From Terriglobia bacterium (GTDB lineage: Bacteria > Acidobacteriota > Terriglobia > 20CM-2-55-15), in NCBI GenBank assembly GCA_965198225.1, contig CBDAOY010000007.1, positions 160,001 to 224,000 of the forward strand: a stretch of 64,000 nt of DNA. Reading direction: 5' to 3'. The notes below the pieces were generated by a model. The model was given only the letters and a program-made list of their open reading frames with translations. It had not been told where the DNA came from and did not search any database. Below, piece after piece: positions 4,115 to 60,074 of the stretch (positions within the stretch are counted from its first letter, which is position 1; the number at the start of each line of letters is the position of its first letter). The translations under genes and the position numbers were made by a program.

Positions 4115-4807
4115 ATGAGCAGGTATTCGATCGCCGAATTTGTATCCAGTACCTCGCAGAAAGACCGCGGCGAGGGACTGTTCGAGCTGGAGACGGAACG
4201 GATGCTCGAGGTCAACTTGAGCGGCCGGGTCTGGACCAAGATGGGATCGATGGTGGCCTACGAGGGCGACATCAAGTTCACACGGGAGGGCGTCCTCGAG
4301 CACGGCCTGGGTCGGATGCTGAAGAAGAGCTTCACCGGCGAGGGTGTGCGGCTGACGAAGGCCGAAGGCAGGGGAGCGCTGTACCTGGCCGACATGGGCA
4401 AGAAGGTTTCGATCCTAAAACTCCAGGGGGAGTCGCTCTTCGTCAATGGCAACGACCTGCTGGCTTTCGAAGACGGAATTCAATGGGACATCAAGCTGAT
4501 GCGCAAGGTGACGGCGATGCTGGCCGGAGGCCTGTTCAACGTGAGGCTCGAAGGCACCGGCATCGTGGCGATCACCACGCACTATGATCCGCTGACGCTC
4601 CGAGTCTCGGCCGATCGTTCCGTAACGACTGATCCCGGTGCCACCGTGGCCTGGTCTGGTTCGCTCAACCCGGAGTTCAAGACCGATGTGTCGCTCAAGA
4701 GCTTCATCGGCCGCGGCAGCGGAGAGTCGATCCAGATGTCTTTCTCCGGCGAGGGCTTTGTCGTCGTTCAGCCCTACGAGGAAGCCTTCGTTCAAGCTCG
4801 GGGGTAG
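4115..4807 (+). CDS. AIM24 family protein
   Basis: GSMVAYEG, GGLFNVRLEGTG, SGESIQMSFSGEGFVVVQP; GGAGG RBS. Confidence 0.85.
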   Translation: MSRYSIAEFVSSTSQKDRGEGLFELETERMLEVNLSGRVWTKMGSMVAYEGDIKFTREGVLEHGLGRMLKKSFTGEGVRLTKAEGRGALYLADMGKKVSILKLQGESLFVNGNDLLAFEDGIQWDIKLMRKVTAMLAGGLFNVRLEGTGIVAITTHYDPLTLRVSADRSVTTDPGATVAWSGSLNPEFKTDVSLKSFIGRGSGESIQMSFSGEGFVVVQPYEEAFVQARG

Positions 4808-4892
4808 CAGCCTGCCGCGGAAGTGCTTGGTTTTTCGTCAGCGCCGCCTAAGCGAGGCGGTAGCCCAAATAGGGCCGCGCCGAATACATTCC

Positions 4893-49827: not shown

Positions 49828-49935
49828 CGAGAGAAGGCACTGCGCCCCTGAGGACCGTTCCGCTCCGAAGGCGTGTTCGGGACATTGGTCTGGAGCGAGC
49901 GATGGAGAATCATATCGGCGTAAATGCGATCGTAG

Positions 49936-51605
49936 ATGGAAACAAACGTGATCCCCTCTGAATCGCCTCACTCAGCTCTCTTCTGGCAGGATTCGGACGG
50001 CAATGAGCGTTCCTTTGTCCTAGACGGCGACCGGACCACGATCGGTCGGCAGGACAGTGATGTCGTGATTCTCGACCCGGCTGTCTCGCGGAGCCACGCT
50101 TTCATCGATAGAGTCGACGGCGGTTATCTCATTACGGACAACGACAGCAAGCAAGGCACCTTGGTCAACGGGGAAGCCATCAAGTCCCACGTCCTGGAGC
50201 TCGGAGACCGAATCGAGCTCGCAAGAAAGAGATTCGTCTTGCACTTCAACTGCTGGTCCCGTCCAACAGATCACACCGACCACGCTGCTGGCACCTCCCG
50301 TTCGACCTGATCGAGCGTTCAATCAGCGACATCCAGACCGCACTGATGTCGGATTCCTCCATTCTCGACAAGGTCTCCTGCATTCTCGAGTTCCGGTACC
50401 GGTGGGAACACTTGTTTACGCCGGACGTGGCTTTTGAACAGATCCTCAGCTCTCTGTTGAAGATCAGCCGGGGGGAACGTGCGTTCATGCTCGTCCGGAA
50501 AGGCGATGGCTTTGGCTACGCTTCCGGGATGGGATCGGACGGCCAGACGTTGAGCGAGGACAAGTTTCAGACGAGCCGAACTGTGGTTTCGAGGGTACTG
50601 AAGAGCGGCCGTCCGCTATTCATGACTGAAGAGCTCGATCGGGTCATTGCCGAGCAGCAGAGCATCATGGCGATGCGACTGGGGGCGGTTGCCTGCATTC
50701 CTCTTTACGGTATCCCGGCCGAGGGCGATACCCCGGTCATCCTGGGCATCCTGTACGTCGACAGCACCAAACCCATGCACTCCTTGACCGGCCTGGACGA
50801 AAAGATCGTGAGCAAGCTGGCGCTCGAGGCCGCCAATGTGCTGGAGCGCATCGAGCTCGTCAAGAGCATCGAGCAACGCCAGGCGCTGGAGCAAGAGCTG
50901 GCGTTGGCGGAAGAAACACAGAAGGCTTTGTTGCCGACCGAGCTCCCCGAGATCGAAGGCTTTCGTTTCTGTGGGTATTCCAAGCCGACCCGCTATGTCG
51001 GTGGAGATTTCTACGACTTCATGCCGGCGTCTGACGACGGCTTCTATGGACTGCTGGGCGACGTGTCGGGTAAGGGGGTTGCCGCCTCGCTCGTCAGTTC
51101 GATGGCGCTGGGGTGTTTGAGGACACAACTGCGGTCAGGCCAGCCACTTGTCGCTCCGGCCGAATTGCTGAACCAGTTGCTCTTTGAAACCTCCCCGGAA
51201 CGCTTCGTGACGCTGTTCCTGCTTCAGCTGGGTCGCGACGGTCGTGGCAGCTACCTGAGCGCGGGTCACAATACCGCTTTTCTCTACCGAAGAGGATCAG
51301 GGGGGGTGGAGGACATCTCCTCAAACAACCTGATCGTAGGGGCGTTCGACTTCGCGACGTTCCACTCTGCTTCGATCACGCTGGAGTCGGGGGACGTCCT
51401 GCTGGTTTACTCGGATGGCCTCAGTGAGGCGGAAAATCCGGCCGGGACGATGCTAGGTGAGGACGCCATTCGAGAGACGCTGAAGGAAAGTGCGGAAGCC
51501 GGGGCGAACGAGGTCGAGGCTGCGCTGCTCGATCTGGTCGATGTCTTTACGGAGGGTCACAGCCAGAGCGACGACATTACGATGGTCATTATCGAGTCGT
51601 TATGA
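49936..51605 (+). CDS. FHA-GAF-PP2C (SpoIIE) phosphatase, frameshifted near 50250
   Basis: IGR..SRSH..GT.VNG; GAF; GGDFYD, GDVSGKG, YSDG, DDIT. Confidence 0.85.
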
Positions 51606-51663
51606 GGCTCGACTGCACACCACCTCCGGACTGTGAGCGCGACGCCCAGTTATTGTCTCAAGG

Positions 51664-51736
51664 GAACTGGGCCAGGGCGGTATGGGATCGGTCTGGCTGG
51701 CGCAGTTTCGAGGTCAGGTCGTCAGGTTGCGATCAA
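51664..51736 (+). pseudogene. Ser/Thr kinase N-lobe remnant
   Basis: [14 protein letters not shown], then GRQVAI in a shifted frame. Confidence 0.6.
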
Positions 51737-51896
51737 TACACTACCCAGATGAGACATTTCTTCCGCTTGAATCCCACCTGTAGGTCAACACATCCCTTCT
51801 AATCGTAGACTTTCCACACAGGGGAATTTATTCTTCCTACGCTGCGAGGCCGTTTCCGGGGGAAGCGGGTCGCCAGCGAGCGTCGGAGGATCATTT

Positions 51897-52895
51897 ATGA
51901 AACCGAGTCGAAGACAGTTCTTGAAGAGCGCAAGCGTGGCAAGTATCGCGGCGTTGGCGGGCAGTCCCGTAGGCGCGCGCAGTTCCGAGGCCCAGAGCGG
52001 CGCCGGTCCGCGTGTGCGTATGGTCGAGACCCCGATTCTCGACATCGGGTACGAAGAGCATGGGGATAGCGAGGGGTTTCCGATCATCCTCCTGCACGGC
52101 TTTCCCTACGATGTGCGATCGTGGGACGGGGTAGCGCCGCCCCTGGCCGATGCCGGTTACAGGGTTCTCGTGCCATATCTTCGCGGGTACGGCCTTACGC
52201 GCTTTCGCGATTCCGATGTACTGCGCACGGCCGAGCAGGCTGCGATCGCTCAGGACGTGATCGATTTTGCCGATGCGCTCAGCCTGGAGCAGTGCGCACT
52301 GGCGGGTTTCGACTGGGGGAATCGTGCGGCCTGCATCGCGGCGATCCTGCACCCCGAACGGGTGAGGGCCCAGGTGGCCATCGGTGGGTATTCAGTACAG
52401 AACACGGTGACCCCTGGGCGGCCCGCACCAGCCGTCGCTGAGGCGAGGCGCTGGTACCAGTGGTACTTCAATACGGACCAGGGGCGGGCCGGGCTCGAGG
52501 CGAATCGCCGGGACATCATCCGGTACCTGTGGGAGACGTGGTCGCCCGGCTGGGAGTATACAGACGAGGCGTTCAACCGCTCGGCCCCCTCGTTCGACAA
52601 TCCTGACTTCGTGGATGTCGTCATCCACTCATACCGGCACCGGCATTTGAACGCTCCGGGGGAGAAGCGCTTCCTGGCGGTGGAACGCCGGTTGGCGGAG
52701 CGGCCGCCGATCCAGGTGCCGGCCATTGTGCTGCGTGCGGCAGAGGGCGGCTTTGGCCGCCCCTCGCAGGACCCGTCAGGAGACGAAGCAAGATTCCCAG
52801 GGCTCGTTGCGCGCCGTATCATTGAGAAGGCAGGACACAACCTGCCGGTGCAGCGGCCCGATGCGGTGTCGGCGGCCCTGTTTAAGCTGCTATAG
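51897..52895 (+). CDS. Tat-exported alpha/beta hydrolase (epoxide hydrolase-like)
   Basis: SRRQFLK, HGFP, GFDWG, AGHN. Confidence 0.9.
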   Translation: MKPSRRQFLKSASVASIAALAGSPVGARSSEAQSGAGPRVRMVETPILDIGYEEHGDSEGFPIILLHGFPYDVRSWDGVAPPLADAGYRVLVPYLRGYGLTRFRDSDVLRTAEQAAIAQDVIDFADALSLEQCALAGFDWGNRAACIAAILHPERVRAQVAIGGYSVQNTVTPGRPAPAVAEARRWYQWYFNTDQGRAGLEANRRDIIRYLWETWSPGWEYTDEAFNRSAPSFDNPDFVDVVIHSYRHRHLNAPGEKRFLAVERRLAERPPIQVPAIVLRAAEGGFGRPSQDPSGDEARFPGLVARRIIEKAGHNLPVQRPDAVSAALFKLL

Positions 52896-52897
52896 GG

Positions 52898-52950
52898 GAC
52901 CATGGTGTTACCTGGTATTCGGCGGGAAACTGTTCAGGAGATTGTTCAGT
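52898..52950 (+). repeat. 53-bp direct repeat, copy 1
   Basis: GACCATGGTGTTACCTGGTATTCGGCGGGAAACTGTTCAGGAGATTGTTCAGT; 48/53 identical to 54120-54172. Confidence 0.85.
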
Positions 52951-53081
52951 CGGGTGCGTCCTCCGTACTGGTTCCCTGCGTCTGGTTCAGTGGGCTGACT
53001 CTCCGGACCAAGGGGCTCGAAACCACTGCTACTGCCTCTCCTTGATCCCGGCATGCGCAGGCAGTAGGTGGATTCCGGGCT

Positions 53082-53381
53082 TCAGATTCGCGCCTTCCGA
53101 CGGGCCTCGCGCTCCCGGGCAATGCGTTCAGCCAGAAAGACCTTGAGAAGGGACTGATAGGGAACGTCCTGTTCGTTTGCCAGCGCCTTCAATTCCTCAA
53201 GCATCCCCGCGGGCAGCCGAACCGAAATTGTGGTCGTCGATGGCTTCAGTGCGGGAAACGAGCCCCGCACCGCCTTGTCCCAATCGAAGTAGTCGACAAC
53301 ATCGTGTTCGGCCCAAAACTTGCGTTCCCGATCCTCGGTTCGGAACCGAGGAGGCCTAGTTGTCCTTTTTCGGGCGCTCAT
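53082..53381 (-). CDS. BrnA/CopG-like antitoxin
   Basis: ERKFWAEHD, ISVRLP..DVPYQSLLK. Confidence 0.85.
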   Translation of the reverse strand: MSARKRTTRPPRFRTEDRERKFWAEHDVVDYFDWDKAVRGSFPALKPSTTTISVRLPAGMLEELKALANEQDVPYQSLLKVFLAERIAREREARRKARI

Positions 53382-53670
53382 ATATCTTCCGCTCTCGCCG
53401 GCTCATGTCCCGGGCCGATATGACCCGAACGAGTGTTTCCCGTATCGTGAAGACGACTGTCAGGAATCGGCCCTGCGTGGTCTGTCCGAGCGCCGCGTAT
53501 CGAAGTTCATCGCCGGTGCTCTTCGCAGGCGCCACCAGTACGGGCCGATTGAAGAAGAGTTGCTCGGCTTCGCTTTCGATAACGCCGTGCCGTTTCCGGT
53601 TCTTGCCCGAGTTCCCCGCGTCCCATTGGAAACCAACACAGCCTGCCAGTTCGTCCGGGAACTCGGGCAC
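53356..53670 (-). CDS. BrnT family toxin
   Basis: FQWD..KN.KRHGV, RVISARDM. Confidence 0.9.
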   Translation of the reverse strand: MPEFPDELAGCVGFQWDAGNSGKNRKRHGVIESEAEQLFFNRPVLVAPAKSTGDELRYAALGQTTQGRFLTVVFTIRETLVRVISARDMSRRERKIYERPKKDN

Positions 53671-53676
53671 AAGTGG

Positions 53677-53705
53677 AGTATATCTCCAGCATATACGTGA
53701 GTCAA
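53677..53705 (-). promoter_or_regulatory. Leaderless sigma70 promoter with operator dyad for the BrnT/BrnA pair
   Basis: TTGACT-17 bp-TATACT, 6 nt before GTG; dyad GTATAT..ATATAC. Confidence 0.7.
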
Positions 53706-54029
53706 GAATGCCGGCCGTATCGGTTCGACCTAGGTGCGAGAGCCCGACGACGGTGATCGGACCGACCGACAACTTGAGCGCACCTCAGGTGAGGATATCG
53801 TGGTGCTGGCGGTTCATCGTTCCCAGGCCGCGCGGAGATGGCAGGCTCGCACTTGAGAGCACATCTACTTGTCGTTCGGAATGGATCGATTCGGATAGCC
53901 CGCTTCAAACGTGCCGTTGTAAAAGGGCTGAGCGGGTCAAAGAGGTGGAGTGATCCCCGGCTTGAACACAGGCGGTCTCTGGGCTTGACGCCTTTCGATA
54001 AGTATAAGAAAATATAGCTACTTACCTGT

Positions 54030-54067
54030 GGGATCGTAGCTCAGTTGGAAGAGCGCCCGCTTCACAC
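54030..54067 (+). tRNA. 5' half of tRNA-Val(CAC), truncated after the anticodon loop
   Basis: GGGATCG-TA-GCTC-AGTTGGAA-GAGC-G-CCCGC-TT-CAC-AC; the expected GCGGG, T-arm and 3' acceptor strand are missing. Confidence 0.8.
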
Positions 54068-54119
54068 AACAACTCAAACACGTTATCTTGTTGGTTCTTC
54101 GTGTCTCTTGGCTGGGTAC

Positions 54120-54172
54120 GACCATGGTATTACCTGGTATTCGGCGTGAAATTGTTCAGTAAATTGTTCAGT
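54120..54172 (+). repeat. 53-bp direct repeat, copy 2
   Basis: Ends in tandem ATTGTTCAGT-AA-ATTGTTCAGT. Confidence 0.85.
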
Positions 54173-54249
54173 TGCGACGAAGGTTGCGAAACGATCCGCA
54201 GCTGCTTGTCCTTGATCCAGGCGTGCGGAGAGAGTAGATTCAAACTGAA

Positions 54250-54477
54250 ATGAGCTACCGGGACATCATCACCATCGAAGCCGGCAAACGGGGGGGGAAA
54301 CCCTGCGTTCGCGGCCTTCGCATCACGGTGTACGATGTTCTCGACTACCTCGCTTCCGGGATGACCGAATCAGAGATTCTTTCGGATTTCCCCGACCTCA
54401 ATGCAGATGACATCCGTGCGTGCCTCGAATTCGCGGCTGACCGCGAGCGCAAACTGGTCTCGCTTCCCCCCGAGTGA
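54250..54477 (+). CDS. DUF433 antitoxin
   Basis: GKRGGKPCVRGLRITV..DIRACL. Confidence 0.9.
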   Translation: MSYRDIITIEAGKRGGKPCVRGLRITVYDVLDYLASGMTESEILSDFPDLNADDIRACLEFAADRERKLVSLPPE

Positions 54478-54806
54478 AGCTTCTATTCGACGAAAACCTG
54501 AGTCCCAGGCTGGTCAAGGAACTGAAGGCCGACTTCCCGGATTCGGTACATGTTCGGGACATTGGTCTGGAGCGAGCGATGGACGAGGCCGTCTGGAACT
54601 ATGCGAGGGACAACGGATTGGTGATCGTCTCGAAAGACGCCGATTTCCGTCAACTCAGCTTCCTGTTTGGAAATCCTCCAAAGGTGATCTGGATCCAACG
54701 AGGGAATTGCTCGACTGCAGCTGTCCTATCGTTGTTTCGACAACGCATCTCAAACCTCCTCAAGTTCGGTCAGGAGGAAGATGGGGCATTCCTAGCGCTT
54801 CGGTAA
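54474..54806 (+). CDS. DUF5615 PIN-like toxin
   Basis: LLFDENLS, SKDADF, PPKVIW; GTGA overlap. Confidence 0.9.
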   Translation: MKLLFDENLSPRLVKELKADFPDSVHVRDIGLERAMDEAVWNYARDNGLVIVSKDADFRQLSFLFGNPPKVIWIQRGNCSTAAVLSLFRQRISNLLKFGQEEDGAFLALR

Positions 54807-54984
54807 CCTGAATCACTTCCCTCGGCGGCAACCGGATTCACCACACTCTTCTCAAGCGTCACTTGTCCGAGACGCGCGATTCATTGAACTGACAGTTTGA
54901 TTGCTTCCAACTCCTTCCTCTCGTACTATTTACGCAAGTTTTTCCTGGACATGGCGAGGGAACGCCTGCGAGGCAGCGCGACCT

Positions 54985-57693
54985 ATGGCTCTCACGGCAG
55001 GTACACGTCTGGGTCCATACGAAATCGGCGACCAACTCGGTGCCGGCGGCATGGGAGAGGTGTATCGCGCCACCGACACCCGTCTGGACCGCACGGTTGC
55101 CATCAAAGTCCTTCCTGAACACCTCGCCGACGAACCGCAACGCCGGGAACGCTTCGAGCGTGAAGCCAAAGCCGTCAGCAGCCTGAACCATCCGCACATC
55201 TGCACGCTCCACGACGTGGGTGAACAGGACGGGATTCACTACCTCGTCATGGAGTACGTGGAGGGCGACACACTCCAGCAGCGTTTGGAGAAAGGCCGAC
55301 TGCCGCTGGATCAGGCCCTCGAATACGCCATCCAGATCGCCGACGCGCTGGACAAGGCCCACCGGCAGGGTGTGGTGCATAGGGATTTGAAGCCCGGCAA
55401 CATCATGATCACGAAGTCGGCAGGTGTGAAGCTCCTCGACTTTGGGTTGGCAAAGCTCAAAGGCGATGCCGATCAAGTCTCGCCGCTCTCTCAGATGCCC
55501 ACCCAAGACCCTTCAGCGCCCCTGACAGCAGAAGGCACGATCCTCGGCACGCTCCAGTACATGGCTCCTGAACAACTGGAGGGCAAGGAAGCCGATGCCC
55601 GGACGGACATCTTCGCATTCGGTGCGGTCGTCTACGAGATGGTCACGGGGAAGAAGGCGTTCGAGGGGGCGAGTCAGGCGAGTTTGATTGCGGCCATCAT
55701 GGATCATGAGCCGCAAGCGATGGCTGAGCTTCAGACCATGACGCCATCGTCGCTGGATCACATCGTGACGACATGCCTCGATAAAGATCCCGATATGCGG
55801 TGGCAGACGGCAGCCGACTTGATGCGCGAGTTGAAGTGGATAGAGGATGGAAACGCACAGGTCGGAACCGCTTCTATCGAAATTCCCTCAAAGAAACGCG
55901 AGCGTGTCGCGTGGTCCGCGAGCCTCGTTCTCCTACTTTCGACCCTTGGAGTCGCCTCCGTTGCGTTTTTCGGTAACGCACCACAGGAGCAGACGACATT
56001 CCGATTCTCTTTCGCCCATCCTTCGGAGGCTCGTGGAGACGTACTGACCGTCTCACCCGATGGCCAACGCCTTGCGTTTCTCGCGTCAAGCTCGACCGGT
56101 GCTCAAGCGGTGTGGGTCCGCGATTTCGAGTCCGGTGAGATGCGGATGCTGGCGGGTTCCGAGAATGCCACCGGATCTTTGTTCTGGTCGCCTGATGGAC
56201 AGGCCATCGGATTCTTCACTGTGACCGAGCTCAAGGCGGTGGATCTTTCTGGCGGTTCTCCTCGGACGGTGTCGCCCCAAGTCGCAAACAGGGGCGGCAC
56301 ATGGAACAAGGACGGGGAGATCATTTTGTCCCTAGGAGGAACGCTACAGCGCGTGTCGGCGGAGGGTGGCCAACCCACGCCGCTGGAGTTGTCGGGCGGG
56401 TTCCCGTACTTCCTGCCCGATGGGATTCATTTCCTTTATGAGTCCAGCTCTGGTCGCGGCCAGTCACTCGGACCTGGGCGACGCCAACTTGAGCCGTCTT
56501 CGATTTACGTGGCGTCTCTGGAATCCTCAGAAACGCGCCTTCTGTTGATTGCCGACCGCGATACCAAGGCTGCGTACGCGAGCGGGCATGTCCTGTTCGT
56601 GAGCGGGGGCGTGTTGATGGCGCAACCGTTTGACGTCGATAGCCTCCAGCTCAGGGGAGAAGCCCACCGAATCGGTCCCCAGGTGTCTTCTCCAGGGGTG
56701 GGGCACGGGGATGACATCCCGTTTTCGGTTTCGACCAACGGTATTCTCGCGTTTCGGTCCGGGAACCGCGTGGATGGACAACTCGTGTGGTTCGATCGTG
56801 AAGGAAACGAAACCCGACGGGTTCCTCAGCCACAGTCAGGCGAGTATCTGAACCCGTCCCTGTCCCCGAGCGGGCAACAGATCGCGGTGAACCGCAAGGA
56901 CCCGGCGACCGGGAATGTCGATATTTGGCTCATCGATATGGGAACGGATACACCGGATCCGCTCACCTCAACGGCATCGTTCGATGCCGACCCGGTCTGG
57001 TCACCCGACAGCCAGGAAATCGCCTTTTCGTCCTACCGGAACGGGAAGTGGGGCCTCTGGAAGAAGAATATCCGCACGGGCGAGGAAGAGCGTCTCTGGG
57101 AGGCTGCCGAGGGATCCGAGCCGAGAACCATGGACTGGTCGCCGGACGGAGAGTTCATTCTCTTCGACCTTCGAAGTCCAAACTCCGACCTCTTCGACCT
57201 TCGAGGTTCAAACTCCGACGTTTGGGTGTTGCCCGTTTCCGGGGATGATCCATGGCCGCTCCTGAACAATCCGAATATCTTCGAGTACGCCGCCCACTTT
57301 TCTCCAGACGGTGAGTGGGTCGCATACATCTCGAGTGAGGCCGGCGCGTTTAGCATCTACGTGGCGCGGTTCCCGGAGGGCACCGAGGGAGGACGGGTCT
57401 CGCTCGCTGGAAGTACTCATCCAAGGTGGAGGGGCGACAGAAGGGAGCTGTTCTACAAGGGCGGTTTTGGGAGCGCCCCGGTGATGGCGGTCCGTGTAGA
57501 GGCTGGCTCCTCGGGCCTTCAATTTGATAACCCAGTACCGGTTTTTGATTCGGTAATGTTAGGGATGTCGGACGGTCGGCACCACTATGCTGTGACTGCC
57601 GATGGAAACCGTTTTCTGCTGAGACGACCGAGCCTGGCCCCCCCACCTGTCACCGTCATCGTCAACTGGACTGCTGAACTGGAAAACCAATGA
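54985..57693 (+). CDS. Ser/Thr protein kinase with TM segment and PD40/TolB-like propeller
   Basis: [24 protein letters not shown]; repeated SPDG. Confidence 0.95.
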
Positions 57694-59949: not shown

Positions 59950-60074
59950 CCTCCTGTCACCCGAGTCCGCAACTCTGGAGAGCTCCGGGAAGCGATTGTT
60001 CAGTTTTGTTCAGTCGAGCGAGGCATCGGGTTCGCCCGCGCACGCCCGAACCAGTCGTCGTCAACGGGTTGAAC

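Follow-up and report, generated by a model that had tools for sequence, protein, structure and literature searches.

A tandem array of putative integration junctions with tRNA-Val 5′ halves and toxin-antitoxin modules in a Terriglobia bacterium

Half of a tRNA-Val gene, equipped with a promoter-like sequence, lies between two nearly identical 53-bp sites and two toxin-antitoxin (TA) type gene pairs in a Terriglobia bacterium. How was a tRNA gene interrupted at the edge of its anticodon loop, and do the repeated sites belong to a mobile system? We addressed this question in a stretch of 64,000 nucleotides (the window; positions 160,001 to 224,000 of contig CBDAOY010000007.1, here C7), then in the whole genome and in its relatives. 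The features of the window that bear on it are as follows.

51897..52895, + strand: alpha/beta hydrolase gene (Pfam Abhydrolase_1, E 1.4e-18; TAT-like signal)
52898-52950, + strand: site 1, the outer 53 nt of a P′ arm (TGTTCAG-N5-TGTTCAG), left side cut off
53032-53067 and 54202-54237, + strand: second homology block, 36 nt, 81% identical, one copy 3′ of each site
53082..53381, − strand: brnA, CopG-type antitoxin (PF12441, E 9.4e-28)
53356..53772, − strand: brnT, RNase toxin (PF04365, E 2.1e-22)
53860..54029, + strand: inner part of an integrase-side (P) arm, homologous to the upstream regions of three other half tRNAs
53985-54013, + strand: promoter-like site TTGACG-17-GAAAAT, upstream of the half tRNA
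54030..54067, + strand: displaced 5′ half of tRNA-Val(CAC), 38 nt (37/38 against positions 1-38 of the intact gene)
54068..54172, + strand: complete P′ arm, a 52-nt spacer (AACAACTCAAACAC...) plus site 2
54120-54172, + strand: site 2, the 53-mer of the complete P′ arm
54250-54477, + strand: DUF433 gene (Pfam E 1.5e-23)
54474-54806, + strand: DUF5615/PIN-like gene (Pfam E 5.5e-37)
54901..57693, + strand: Ser/Thr kinase with PD40 beta-propeller repeats (Pfam), cargo
59997..60013, + strand: P-arm-type TGTTCAG-N3-TGTTCAG, no half tRNA following

The half tRNA and the 53-bp sites

The initial annotation had already named site 1, BrnA/BrnT, the TTGACG motif, the half tRNA-Val, site 2 and DUF433/DUF5615, and all were recovered at the coordinates above. 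The half tRNA includes the whole anticodon loop, TTCACAC, and breaks off right after it. Sites 1 and 2 are identical at 48/53 positions (91%) and both terminate in TGTTCAG-N5-TGTTCAG; the 27-nt core of the repeat has two matches in the window against none in 100 shuffles. Since a second block of 36 nt follows each site, the repeat must be longer than 53 nt, with an indel, and the copy after site 2 lies directly upstream of the DUF433 start codon. Site 1 has neither spacer nor tRNA half. The hydrolase stop codon lies 2 nt before it with nothing of the kind in between, and the hydrolase gene probably belongs to the cargo of another unit, to the left, that has lost its right-hand junction by deletion.

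The brnT and brnA ORFs overlap on the − strand, and both Pfam models score above their cut-offs, as expected for a type II BrnTA module. The BrnT domain covers residues 50-127 of its ORF, which places the true start probably further in. The DUF433/DUF5615 module (54250..54806) is a 652-nt insertion relative to the third unit of the array described below, where only 26 nt are found at the same place. The tandem repeat at 59997..60013, having no half tRNA behind it, is a truncated internal junction, which makes the second unit composite.

A tandem array that terminates at the intact tRNA-Val(CAC)

The window turned out to hold the left end of an array of ~47 kb, from about 212.9 kb to 259.8 kb of C7. 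The initial annotation had suggested looking for an intact tRNA-Val(CAC), and the sole such gene of the genome was found at C7 259763-259836 on the + strand, 45.7 kb downstream of the window's half, where it terminates the array. Upstream of it and on its strand lie four 5′ halves (C7 214030, 224950, 235401 and 236316), 95-100% identical to the gene, forming a direct repeat at the far end of the element, and each is directly followed by spacer and 53-mer. A promoter-like site precedes all four halves (TTGACG-17-GAAAAT in three cases, GATACT in one), and the intact gene also has one. A split or intron-containing tRNA was rejected, as a 3′ half follows none of the four.

The 53-mer was not confined to the window, nor did it lack a link to tRNA genes and an integrase, a combination that would have told against the initial annotation's view. 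It occurs six times in the 6.4-Mb genome, always on C7 and always on the + strand (212898, 214120, 225042, 235493, 236407 and 242800). Nine of the 12 tandem TGTTCA[G/C/A] pairs genome-wide are inside the array, and one on contig C5 adjoins a related integrase remnant at tRNA-Asn. A MITE or REP element was also rejected, the copies being confined to one array and one strand and keeping a constant spacing to the tRNA break.

Unit sizes range from 0.9 to 23 kb, and the cargo comprises kinases, an amidase, an aminotransferase and conjugation genes in addition to TA modules. The adjacency of TA modules and sites noticed in the window holds across the array: a TA module or TA-like gene pair starts no more than about 125 nt from the arm end at 5 of the 6 arm copies of this genome. 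The rightmost unit encodes a TraG/TraD-like coupling protein, a VirB11/TrbB-like ATPase, ArdC and an XRE-M78 regulator, and an IS transposase is inserted next to its integrase; neither a relaxase nor VirB4 was seen among the ORFs scanned. The units between 214067 and 236316 have junctions on both sides, and tblastn with the integrase gave no match on C7 left of 258484. They have thus kept att sites on both sides and lost integrase and transfer genes, as is the case for cis-mobilizable elements (CIMEs).

Some junctions are less regular. At arm s6 (242748) the partner is a truncated ankyrin ORF instead of a tRNA half, and both this arrangement and the bare site 1 require further deletions or secondary-site events. 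The assembly contains no copy of the original host 5′ half with a genus-type promoter (queried with the tRNA-Val upstream region of genomes G001 and G002), and so gives no left boundary for the array. Comparison with the tRNA-Val neighborhoods of the same-genus genomes G001-G003 gave scattered matches at C7 177-197 kb and many paralog matches, and no boundary. We also compared assembled contigs of the public runs X3, X4, X8 and X1 (the last only as short, diverged pieces) with C7 211500-231400. The joints listed, 15 of 91, all fall within kinase paralogs and have short sides; none of them connects one att junction to another, and neither an excised circle nor an empty site was seen, a result that is neutral on mobility since rare excision is invisible in contigs.

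The integrase and the attachment arm in other genomes

None of the 32 PF00589 matches of the genome falls in the window, as the initial annotation had stated. Its further suggestion of an integrase-free array did not hold.

C7 258484-259719, + strand: tyrosine integrase ORF, 411 aa (PF00589, 75.8 bits, with an N-terminal SAM-like domain)

This integrase, outside the window, ends 43 nt before the intact tRNA-Val(CAC) on the same strand. Of the catalytic set R-K-H-R-H-Y, the residues R, K, R, H and Y align, but the first His is replaced by Leu (WLTFRRT), as in 13 of 13 close-clade members, which counts somewhat against a complete set; the substitution is a trait of the clade and not a lesion of this copy. 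The last codons of the gene contain TGTTCAG-N3-TGTTCAG, so that this P-arm pair coincides with conserved integrase codons (ELFSIVQ) and its conservation may be due to coding alone.

At 30 of 34 homologous loci (34-63% identity), a tRNA gene lies 38-270 nt from the 3′ end of the integrase gene. It is on the opposite strand, the usual orientation, at 29 of these 30 and on the same strand only for the array integrase; four further integrase loci all have the usual orientation. The array integrase sits inside a clade with 100/100 support. The other members of that clade use the usual orientation, at tRNA-Asn, Lys, Ala, Pro, Val(GAC) and Val(CAC). Among five more distant homologues (28-31% identity), two have a same-strand tRNA 100-130 nt downstream, and the count of 1 in 30 may make the reversal look rarer than it is.

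The 53-mer proved to be the outer, conserved portion of an attachment-site arm of 105 nt with tandem TGTTCAG repeats. Within the bacterial family, 7 of 34 genomes have this arm, and a pattern scan across 185,579 species, with one genome for each, returned only five stretches, all from Acidobacteriota or Terriglobia. In other genomes it is joined to 5′ halves of tRNA-Val (G040, G016, G006 and G015) and tRNA-Lys (L098), and also to reverse-complemented 3′ halves of tRNA-Asn, tRNA-Pro and tRNA-Val(CAC); the tRNA break is always at the loop boundary. G016 retains a C-terminal remnant of the same integrase as the array's upstream of its tRNA-Val. Between the two repeats of a second type of 5′-half element, found in G015 (left end TTATGCACG...), there is no PF00589 match. 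The arm is missing from the same-genus genomes G001-G003; in G001 and G002 the region upstream of tRNA-Val is a different one, without a match in this genome.

We consider it likely that the half tRNA and the 53-mers are the junction scars of repeated site-specific integrations into the single tRNA-Val(CAC), laid down as a tandem array. The initial annotation had taken the sites for attachment arms of a tyrosine integrase crossing over at the anticodon loop, with units accumulating at a tRNA att site, and the junctions bear this out. As the anatomy suggests, the integrase would exchange strands within the 7-nt anticodon loop, and attP would carry a promoter and a tRNA 5′ half, that is, the reversed orientation. 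With such an attP, the incoming element would restore the tRNA by joining the promoter and 5′ half that it brings to the resident 3′ half, and the resident promoter and 5′ half would be displaced to the far (left) end, still joined to the P′ arm of the element. An element on the 5′ side of the tRNA gene that supplies promoter and 5′ half leaves a 5′ rather than a 3′ fragment as its scar, which settles the puzzle that the initial annotation had raised in pointing out that tyrosine integrases usually leave a 3′ one. We infer that the tandem TGTTCAG repeats are, most likely, arm-type integrase binding sites; besides these N3- and N5-spaced pairs there is a second direct repeat, TGGTATT.

Repeated integrations would then stack the units, presumably with the oldest leftmost. 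Older units would have lost their integrase and come to match the definition of CIMEs, the two window units would have been reduced to little beyond a TA module and a junction, and the rightmost unit, with its integrase, type IV secretion coupling protein, VirB11-type ATPase and ArdC, would be a decayed conjugative or mobilizable element. The content of the array is best read as a tandem accretion of decayed integrase-less islands and a single conjugative element, likewise decayed; the TA modules lie at the ends away from the integrase and probably stabilise the islands.

Other origins of the junctions were weighed against this reading. One integrated element and its junction could have been duplicated in place by unequal homologous recombination, which the dozens of kinase paralogs in the genome could drive. 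Units 2 and 3 start with 880 nt at 88% identity (in the window, the 5′ region of the kinase gene at 54901..57693), and three integrase-less P arms (219997, 224780 and 235228) are preceded by the same homologous stretch, which forms the end of a kinase-type ORF at the last two. Some units may accordingly be mutual copies and not separate arrivals. As an account of the whole array, however, in-place copying is unlikely. The junction arms differ from one another by 12-26% and are nearer to copies in other genera than to their neighbors: the window's P′ arm matches the G015 copy at 92/104 positions and any copy of its own genome at 89/104 at most, and arm s5 matches G041 at 94/104 and G040 at 93/104 vs 82-85/104 for arms s2-s4. 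In these alignments, the relatedness of the arms proves to be horizontal rather than local, and the pairwise identities point away from a single clade for the copies of this genome. The cargo is also not the same between units, and the break lies exactly at the loop boundary in every case, like that of the arms at other tRNAs elsewhere.

The proposal of the initial annotation, small TA cassettes bounded by the 53-bp site and moved singly by an integrase in trans, integron-like without attC, appears very improbable. Two tiny units of ~1.2 kb (212898-214067) and ~0.9 kb (235440-236316) do consist of a TA-type gene pair and junctions only (in the smaller one an RHH pair at 235639-236159), the DUF433/DUF5615 pair is an indel immediately beside the arm, and new units would join next to the integrase as in an integron. 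However, the integrase is not of the integron type, scoring 33.7 bits with the integron-integrase model TIGR02249 against a cut-off of 265, and the sites carry no attC-like hairpin signal: on neither strand do the arm and the 53-mer fold better than shuffled sequence (z −0.29 to −0.65), and the repeats are direct, not inverted. The remaining units are 10-23 kb with non-TA cargo, so 'small TA cassettes' does not describe the array, and the truncated arms in the small units fit decay. Independent movement of the TA pair is not supported by G041, a genome of another genus in which arm and DUF433/DUF5615 block recur as one unit.

Finally, an assembly artefact or a chance tRNA-like sequence is refuted for practical purposes, for although ARAGORN called no tRNA in the window and Rfam (51500-56000, E up to 10) gave two chance-level matches, neither of them a tRNA or riboswitch, the half matches the intact gene at 37/38, the break point is identical in four copies, and the junction is present in at least four other genomes. 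An assembly chimera was rejected on the same recurrence, and a 1591-nt contig of run X8 covers C7 212761-214351 (site 1, brnTA, half tRNA and site 2) with no differences, a support that is not necessarily independent as the run may derive from the source sample.

Orientation, known systems and significance

Seen as scars of repeated integration, the array is a structure of a known kind, in an orientation that is known but rare. An anticodon-loop class of tRNA-targeting tyrosine integrases was reportedly set out by Williams in 2002. The array resembles it in that its identity block stops at the anticodon loop, its integrase adjoins the tRNA and both arms of the element have arm-type direct repeats; it differs in the reversed orientation and in the Leu found for the first catalytic His in its clade. 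Elements that integrate into tRNA genes in reverse orientation are said to have been described by Zhao and Williams in the same year (J Bacteriol 184:859). Recombination with the 5′-distal part of a tRNA obliges the element to supply the 5′ part, in these elements and in the array alike. Unlike them, the array member belongs to an integrase and arm family that is otherwise of the usual orientation and uses tRNA-Val(CAC) both ways, and its four stacked 5′ halves record repeated events. In PMC6563490, which lists archaeal cases of the reversed kind, 5′-distal integration is called 'considerably less frequent' than 3′-distal.

It is possible, and we put it forward tentatively, that the direction of integration at a tRNA gene flipped within this one integrase and arm family. 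The P′ arm or closely related integrases occur at tRNA-Val(CAC) in the usual orientation in G001, G041 and G015 and in the reversed one in this genome, G016, G006, G040 and G015, and the arm is also reversed at tRNA-Lys. As the anticodon stem is a perfect inverted repeat, the same stem half-sites are offered in both orientations and only the 7-nt loop differs (TTCACAC vs GTGTGAA); inversion of the overlap in attP with capture of a promoter and 5′ half would perhaps suffice. If so, nature would have provided in this family a matched pair with which to test how the orientation of integration at tRNA genes is determined, and the stacked, promoter-bearing 5′ halves would act as reserve front ends, so that the tRNA would stay expressed after excision of any of the units.

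The closest parallel for the array as a whole is the tandem ICE/IME accretion with decayed CIMEs of the ICESt1/ICESt3 type, as described in PMC5704250. The two would share a history of integration, decay that keeps att sites and loses integration and transfer genes, and new integration at the regenerated target, as well as chimeric internal att junctions and an integrase only in the youngest unit. They differ in the target, here the 5′ side of a tRNA gene where the other elements use a gene's 3′ end, and in the promoter and 5′ half present in every scar. As in integrons, units would have been added stepwise at one site beside the integrase, which would order the array by age; unlike integrons, it has neither an IntI-type integrase nor attC hairpins, and its units are whole or decayed islands with promoters of their own.

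A promoter-driven tRNA 5′ half beside TA genes thus finds an explanation as ordinary site-specific accretion in the uncommon reversed orientation, in a well-resolved case from the Acidobacteriota, whose mobile elements are little studied. The locus supplies an arm family common to targets in tRNA-Asn, Pro, Lys and Val, used in both orientations on tRNA-Val(CAC), and a four-deep record of 5′ halves. It is also a caution for annotation, the kinase, hydrolase and TA genes within the ~47-kb stretch being island cargo. The family offers a concrete system in which to ask how overlap sequence and arm geometry decide orientation, and whether the integrase-less TA remnants are still mobilised.

Sites and genes within the window

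Two 53-mers, identical at 48 of 53 positions, occur in the window together with half of a tRNA gene and two small gene pairs.

Features of the window (window positions; strand where recorded)
52898-52950, + strand: 53-mer, site 1
53082-53381, - strand: BrnA/CopG antitoxin (Pfam)
53356-53772, - strand: BrnT (Pfam)
54030-54067: 5' half of tRNA-Val(CAC), 38 nt, 37/38 against positions 1-38 of the intact gene
54120-54172, + strand: 53-mer, site 2
54250-54477: DUF433 (Pfam)
54474-54806: DUF5615/PIN-like (Pfam)

The half tRNA breaks at the last base of the anticodon loop and starts 16 nt after the end of a promoter-like site, TTGACG-17-GAAAAT. The 27-nt core of the repeat gave two matches in the window vs none in 100 shuffles, and each 53-mer is followed by a 36-nt block (81% identity between copies), with an indel between the 53-mer and the block. 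The initial annotation had described these sites, genes, promoter-like site and half tRNA correctly, and its remark that the window holds no integrase agrees with the absence of any PF00589 match there; ARAGORN found no tRNA in the window.

Beside its TGTTCAG pair, the 53-mer carries a second direct repeat, TGGTRTTAC / TGGTATTCG, of period 10 (window 52903-52925 and 54125-54147), the first copy of which overlaps a short palindrome, ACCATGGT. A second protein, an excisionase for example, may bind this repeat.

The array on contig C7

Across the 6.4-Mb assembly the 53-mer has six copies (arms s1 to s6, left to right), all on the + strand of contig C7, on which window position 1 is 160001.

Features of the array (C7 positions)
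212898, 214120, 225042, 235493, 236407, 242800, + strand: 53-mers
214030, 224950, 235401, 236316: four tRNA-Val 5' halves, 95-100% identity
212898-214067: unit 1, 1.2 kb, brnTA only
214068-224950: unit 2, ~11 kb, DUF433/DUF5615, two kinase-PD40 genes, aminotransferase
224990-235401: unit 3, ~10 kb, three kinase-PD40 genes, amidase
235440-236316: unit 4, 0.9 kb, weak RHH match (below cut-off), small ORF
236355-259763: unit 5, 23 kb, HipA with HTH partner, XRE-M78 regulator, antitoxin-like ORF with ParE, ankyrin proteins, TraG/TraD-like coupling protein, VirB11/TrbB-like ATPase, ankyrin-ArdC fusion, IS transposase, integrase
258484-259719, + strand: integrase ORF, 411 aa, Phage_integrase domain and N-terminal SAM-like domain
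259763-259836, + strand: single intact tRNA-Val(CAC) of the genome

The initial annotation had read the region as integrase-free, but beyond the window an integrase adjoins the intact tRNA-Val(CAC), the gene that it had proposed to look for. The integrase shares the strand of this tRNA and ends 43 nt before it, which places the element 5' of the gene. A tblastn search with the integrase found no integrase remnants on C7 left of 258484.

In alignments the junctions follow one order: the integrase-side P arm with TGTTCAG-N3-TGTTCAG, ~165 nt, the TTGACG promoter-like site, the 38-nt half, a 52-nt spacer and the 53-mer, the spacer and 53-mer forming a P' arm that ends in TGTTCAG-N5-TGTTCAG. This is the expected internal junction of a tandem array, in which the right end of an element meets the left end of its neighbor. 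Each of the four halves runs directly into the ~52-nt spacer (AACAACTCAAACACGTTATCTTGTTGG...) and then the 53-mer, and each is preceded by a promoter-like site; the intact tRNA-Val(CAC) has CAGACA-17-AATAAT. The genome holds 12 tandem TGTTCA[G/C/A] pairs, nine of them within the array and one, on contig C5, adjoining a related integrase remnant at tRNA-Asn. The P-arm motif is to be read with caution, as the pair falls on conserved codons (ELFSIVQ) of the integrase C-terminus; the motif is also kept in the non-coding P' arm and in integrase-less P arms.

Some junctions are truncated: at site 1 the 53-mer stands alone, 2 nt past an alpha/beta hydrolase stop codon, and at C7 219997 only the P-arm pair is left. 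A third such junction is the arm at C7 242748 (within 242526-242854, or 4526-4854 of stretch L094), where a truncated ankyrin-repeat ORF takes the place of the tRNA half; the arm is 96% identical to the one at C7 236355, and by our own count 12 of 21 positions at the fusion resemble the tRNA anticodon arm, which suggests a secondary-site event followed by deletion.

The anticodon-loop class of tyrosine integrases, for which a passage of PMC6563490 cites Williams 2002, has an established behavior, and on this basis strand exchange would take place within the 7-nt loop with the integrase bound to the TGTTCAG arm repeats. Integration would rebuild the tRNA with the promoter and 5' half brought by the element, and the resident 5' half would be pushed leftwards.

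A toxin-antitoxin or similar pair begins within ~125 nt of the arm in five of the six copies. Compared with unit 3, which has 26 nt at this place, the DUF433/DUF5615 pair forms an insertion of 652 nt; in G041, a genome of another genus, the same arm is followed by a degraded DUF433/DUF5615 pair (DUF433 protein 90.5% identical), and this recurrence indicates that the pair travels with the arm. The kinase-PD40 genes (~930 aa) have undergone a huge expansion: the genome has dozens of paralogs, with five full copies plus several fragments at C7 214901-235182, and in G015 too this arm is followed by similar genes.

Neither the left boundary of the array nor the original host 5' half was found when same-genus tRNA-Val neighborhoods and upstream regions were compared with this genome. 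A lone 33-nt segment upstream of an FHA-domain gene (window 49874-49906), an exact match to 54551-54583 within the DUF5615 gene, hints that the array formerly extended further left and may be a relic of another arm-plus-toxin-antitoxin unit. Among the joints listed in assembled contigs of public runs there was no att-to-att joint, and thus no evidence of present mobility.

A multi-copy repeat lies just 3' of the intact tRNA (C7 259924-261770, or 15924-17770 of stretch L019), with 113 nt in ~10 genome copies plus 20-22-nt ends; the interval also holds, on the - strand, a DDE transposase and an integrase fragment of 168 aa, facing the 3' end of the tRNA as is usual.

Arms and integrases in other genomes

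Of the 34 genomes of the family, 7 carry the spacer and 53-mer (4 of 11 genera), and all three other genomes of the genus lack them; a pattern scan of 185,579 species, one genome each, found the arm in five stretches, all from Acidobacteriota or Terriglobia. The search for the 53-mer and its neighboring tRNA fragments, also proposed initially, thus revealed arms joined to halves of several tRNAs.

tRNA parts before the arm (G, genomes; L, sequence stretches)
tRNA-Val(CAC) 5' half: G040, G016, G006; G015 twice, 1 kb apart
tRNA-Lys(TTT) 5' half: L098
tRNA-Asn 3' half, reverse-complemented: G041, G015, G037, L095, L096, L099
tRNA-Pro 3' half, reverse-complemented: G037
tRNA-Val(CAC) 3' half, reverse-complemented: G041, G015
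no recognisable tRNA part: L036, L050

The break always falls at the loop boundary; the first ~17 nt past it vary with the target tRNA and the remainder of the arm is conserved. The same layout, in the usual orientation, is seen in G037, where the integrase at tRNA-Pro and the arm with the displaced tRNA-Pro 3' half lie 15 kb apart on one contig. The Terriglobia MAG OZ240237.1 (L098, ~4700-4850) has the tRNA-Lys(TTT) 5' half attached to the same P' arm, whose spacer is similar; here another tRNA is used in the reversed orientation.

Integrase loci were searched in the 34 genomes of the family and 400 of the class (tallies of the class search take in two unpublished genomes, on which no claim rests), and 34 loci were examined, with one locus from an unpublished genome left out. 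In 30 of them a tRNA lies 38-270 nt from the 3' end of the integrase, and in four none is nearby; the tRNA is on the opposite strand in 29 of the 30, and on the same strand only for the integrase of this array. Four further named loci (53-75% identity) all have the usual orientation. In the tree the array integrase falls in a clade of 13 (100/100 support, inner branches unresolved), the other members of which all have the usual orientation, their targets being Asn, Lys, Ala, Pro, Val(GAC) and Val(CAC). WLTFRRT is present in 13/13 of this clade (the array's at L019:14484-15719) vs W-H-x-x-R-H-T in more distant relatives, so that the first catalytic His is Leu throughout. In G016, residues 345-411 of this integrase survive as a remnant (69% identical) upstream of tRNA-Val.

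Two observations count against the rarity of reversal. Among five more distant homologues (28-31% identity), two are followed after 100-130 nt by a tRNA on the same strand, Ser-TGA at L062 (G005) and Gly-GCC at L063 (G009), and these two may be reversed as well. Displaced tRNA-Val(CAC) 5' halves are also left by a second, unrelated type of element (left end TTATGCACG...), in G015 (L029, 10619 and 17701), where the repeat takes in at least 130 nt of upstream sequence, and in G003 (L032; G003:C1:669353-669622), where an integrase fragment lies just upstream of tRNA-Val on the same strand.

Nine PF00589 matches in the source genome score equally (152 bits; six open frames of 313 aa and three of 236, 278 and 334 aa) and probably represent a multi-copy IS-like element encoding a tyrosine recombinase.

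Origin of the units and relation to known systems

The copy closest to the window arm, s2, is that of G015, at 50/52 for the 53-mer and 92/104 for the whole arm; within its own genome the window arm reaches at most 89/104. Arms s5 and s6 agree at 100/104 positions, and s5 matches G041 at 94 and G040 at 93 vs only 82-85 for s2-s4. This closeness to copies in other genomes favors the separate acquisition of related elements. Local copying has its own evidence: units 2 and 3 have 880 nt in common at 88%, and the three integrase-less P arms are preceded by the same homology, at two of them the end of a kinase-type ORF, so that some copying, or a shared ancestor, is likely for those units.

An integron was rejected, the array's integrase scoring 33.7 bits vs a cut-off of 265 on the integron-integrase model and folding giving no attC-like hairpin signal at the array sites. 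The initial interpretation accordingly loses its "integron-like" part along with the "integrase-free" one, but its att-site accretion and arm repeats stand. The array fits the accretion and CIME scheme as described in the relevant passages of PMC5704250, and there are known cases of integration into the 5'-distal part of a tRNA gene, which a passage of PMC6563490 calls "considerably less frequent". The C7 array is of a known kind, and its orientation, though rare, is known as well; the useful twist is that the same tRNA is used in both orientations inside one arm and integrase family.
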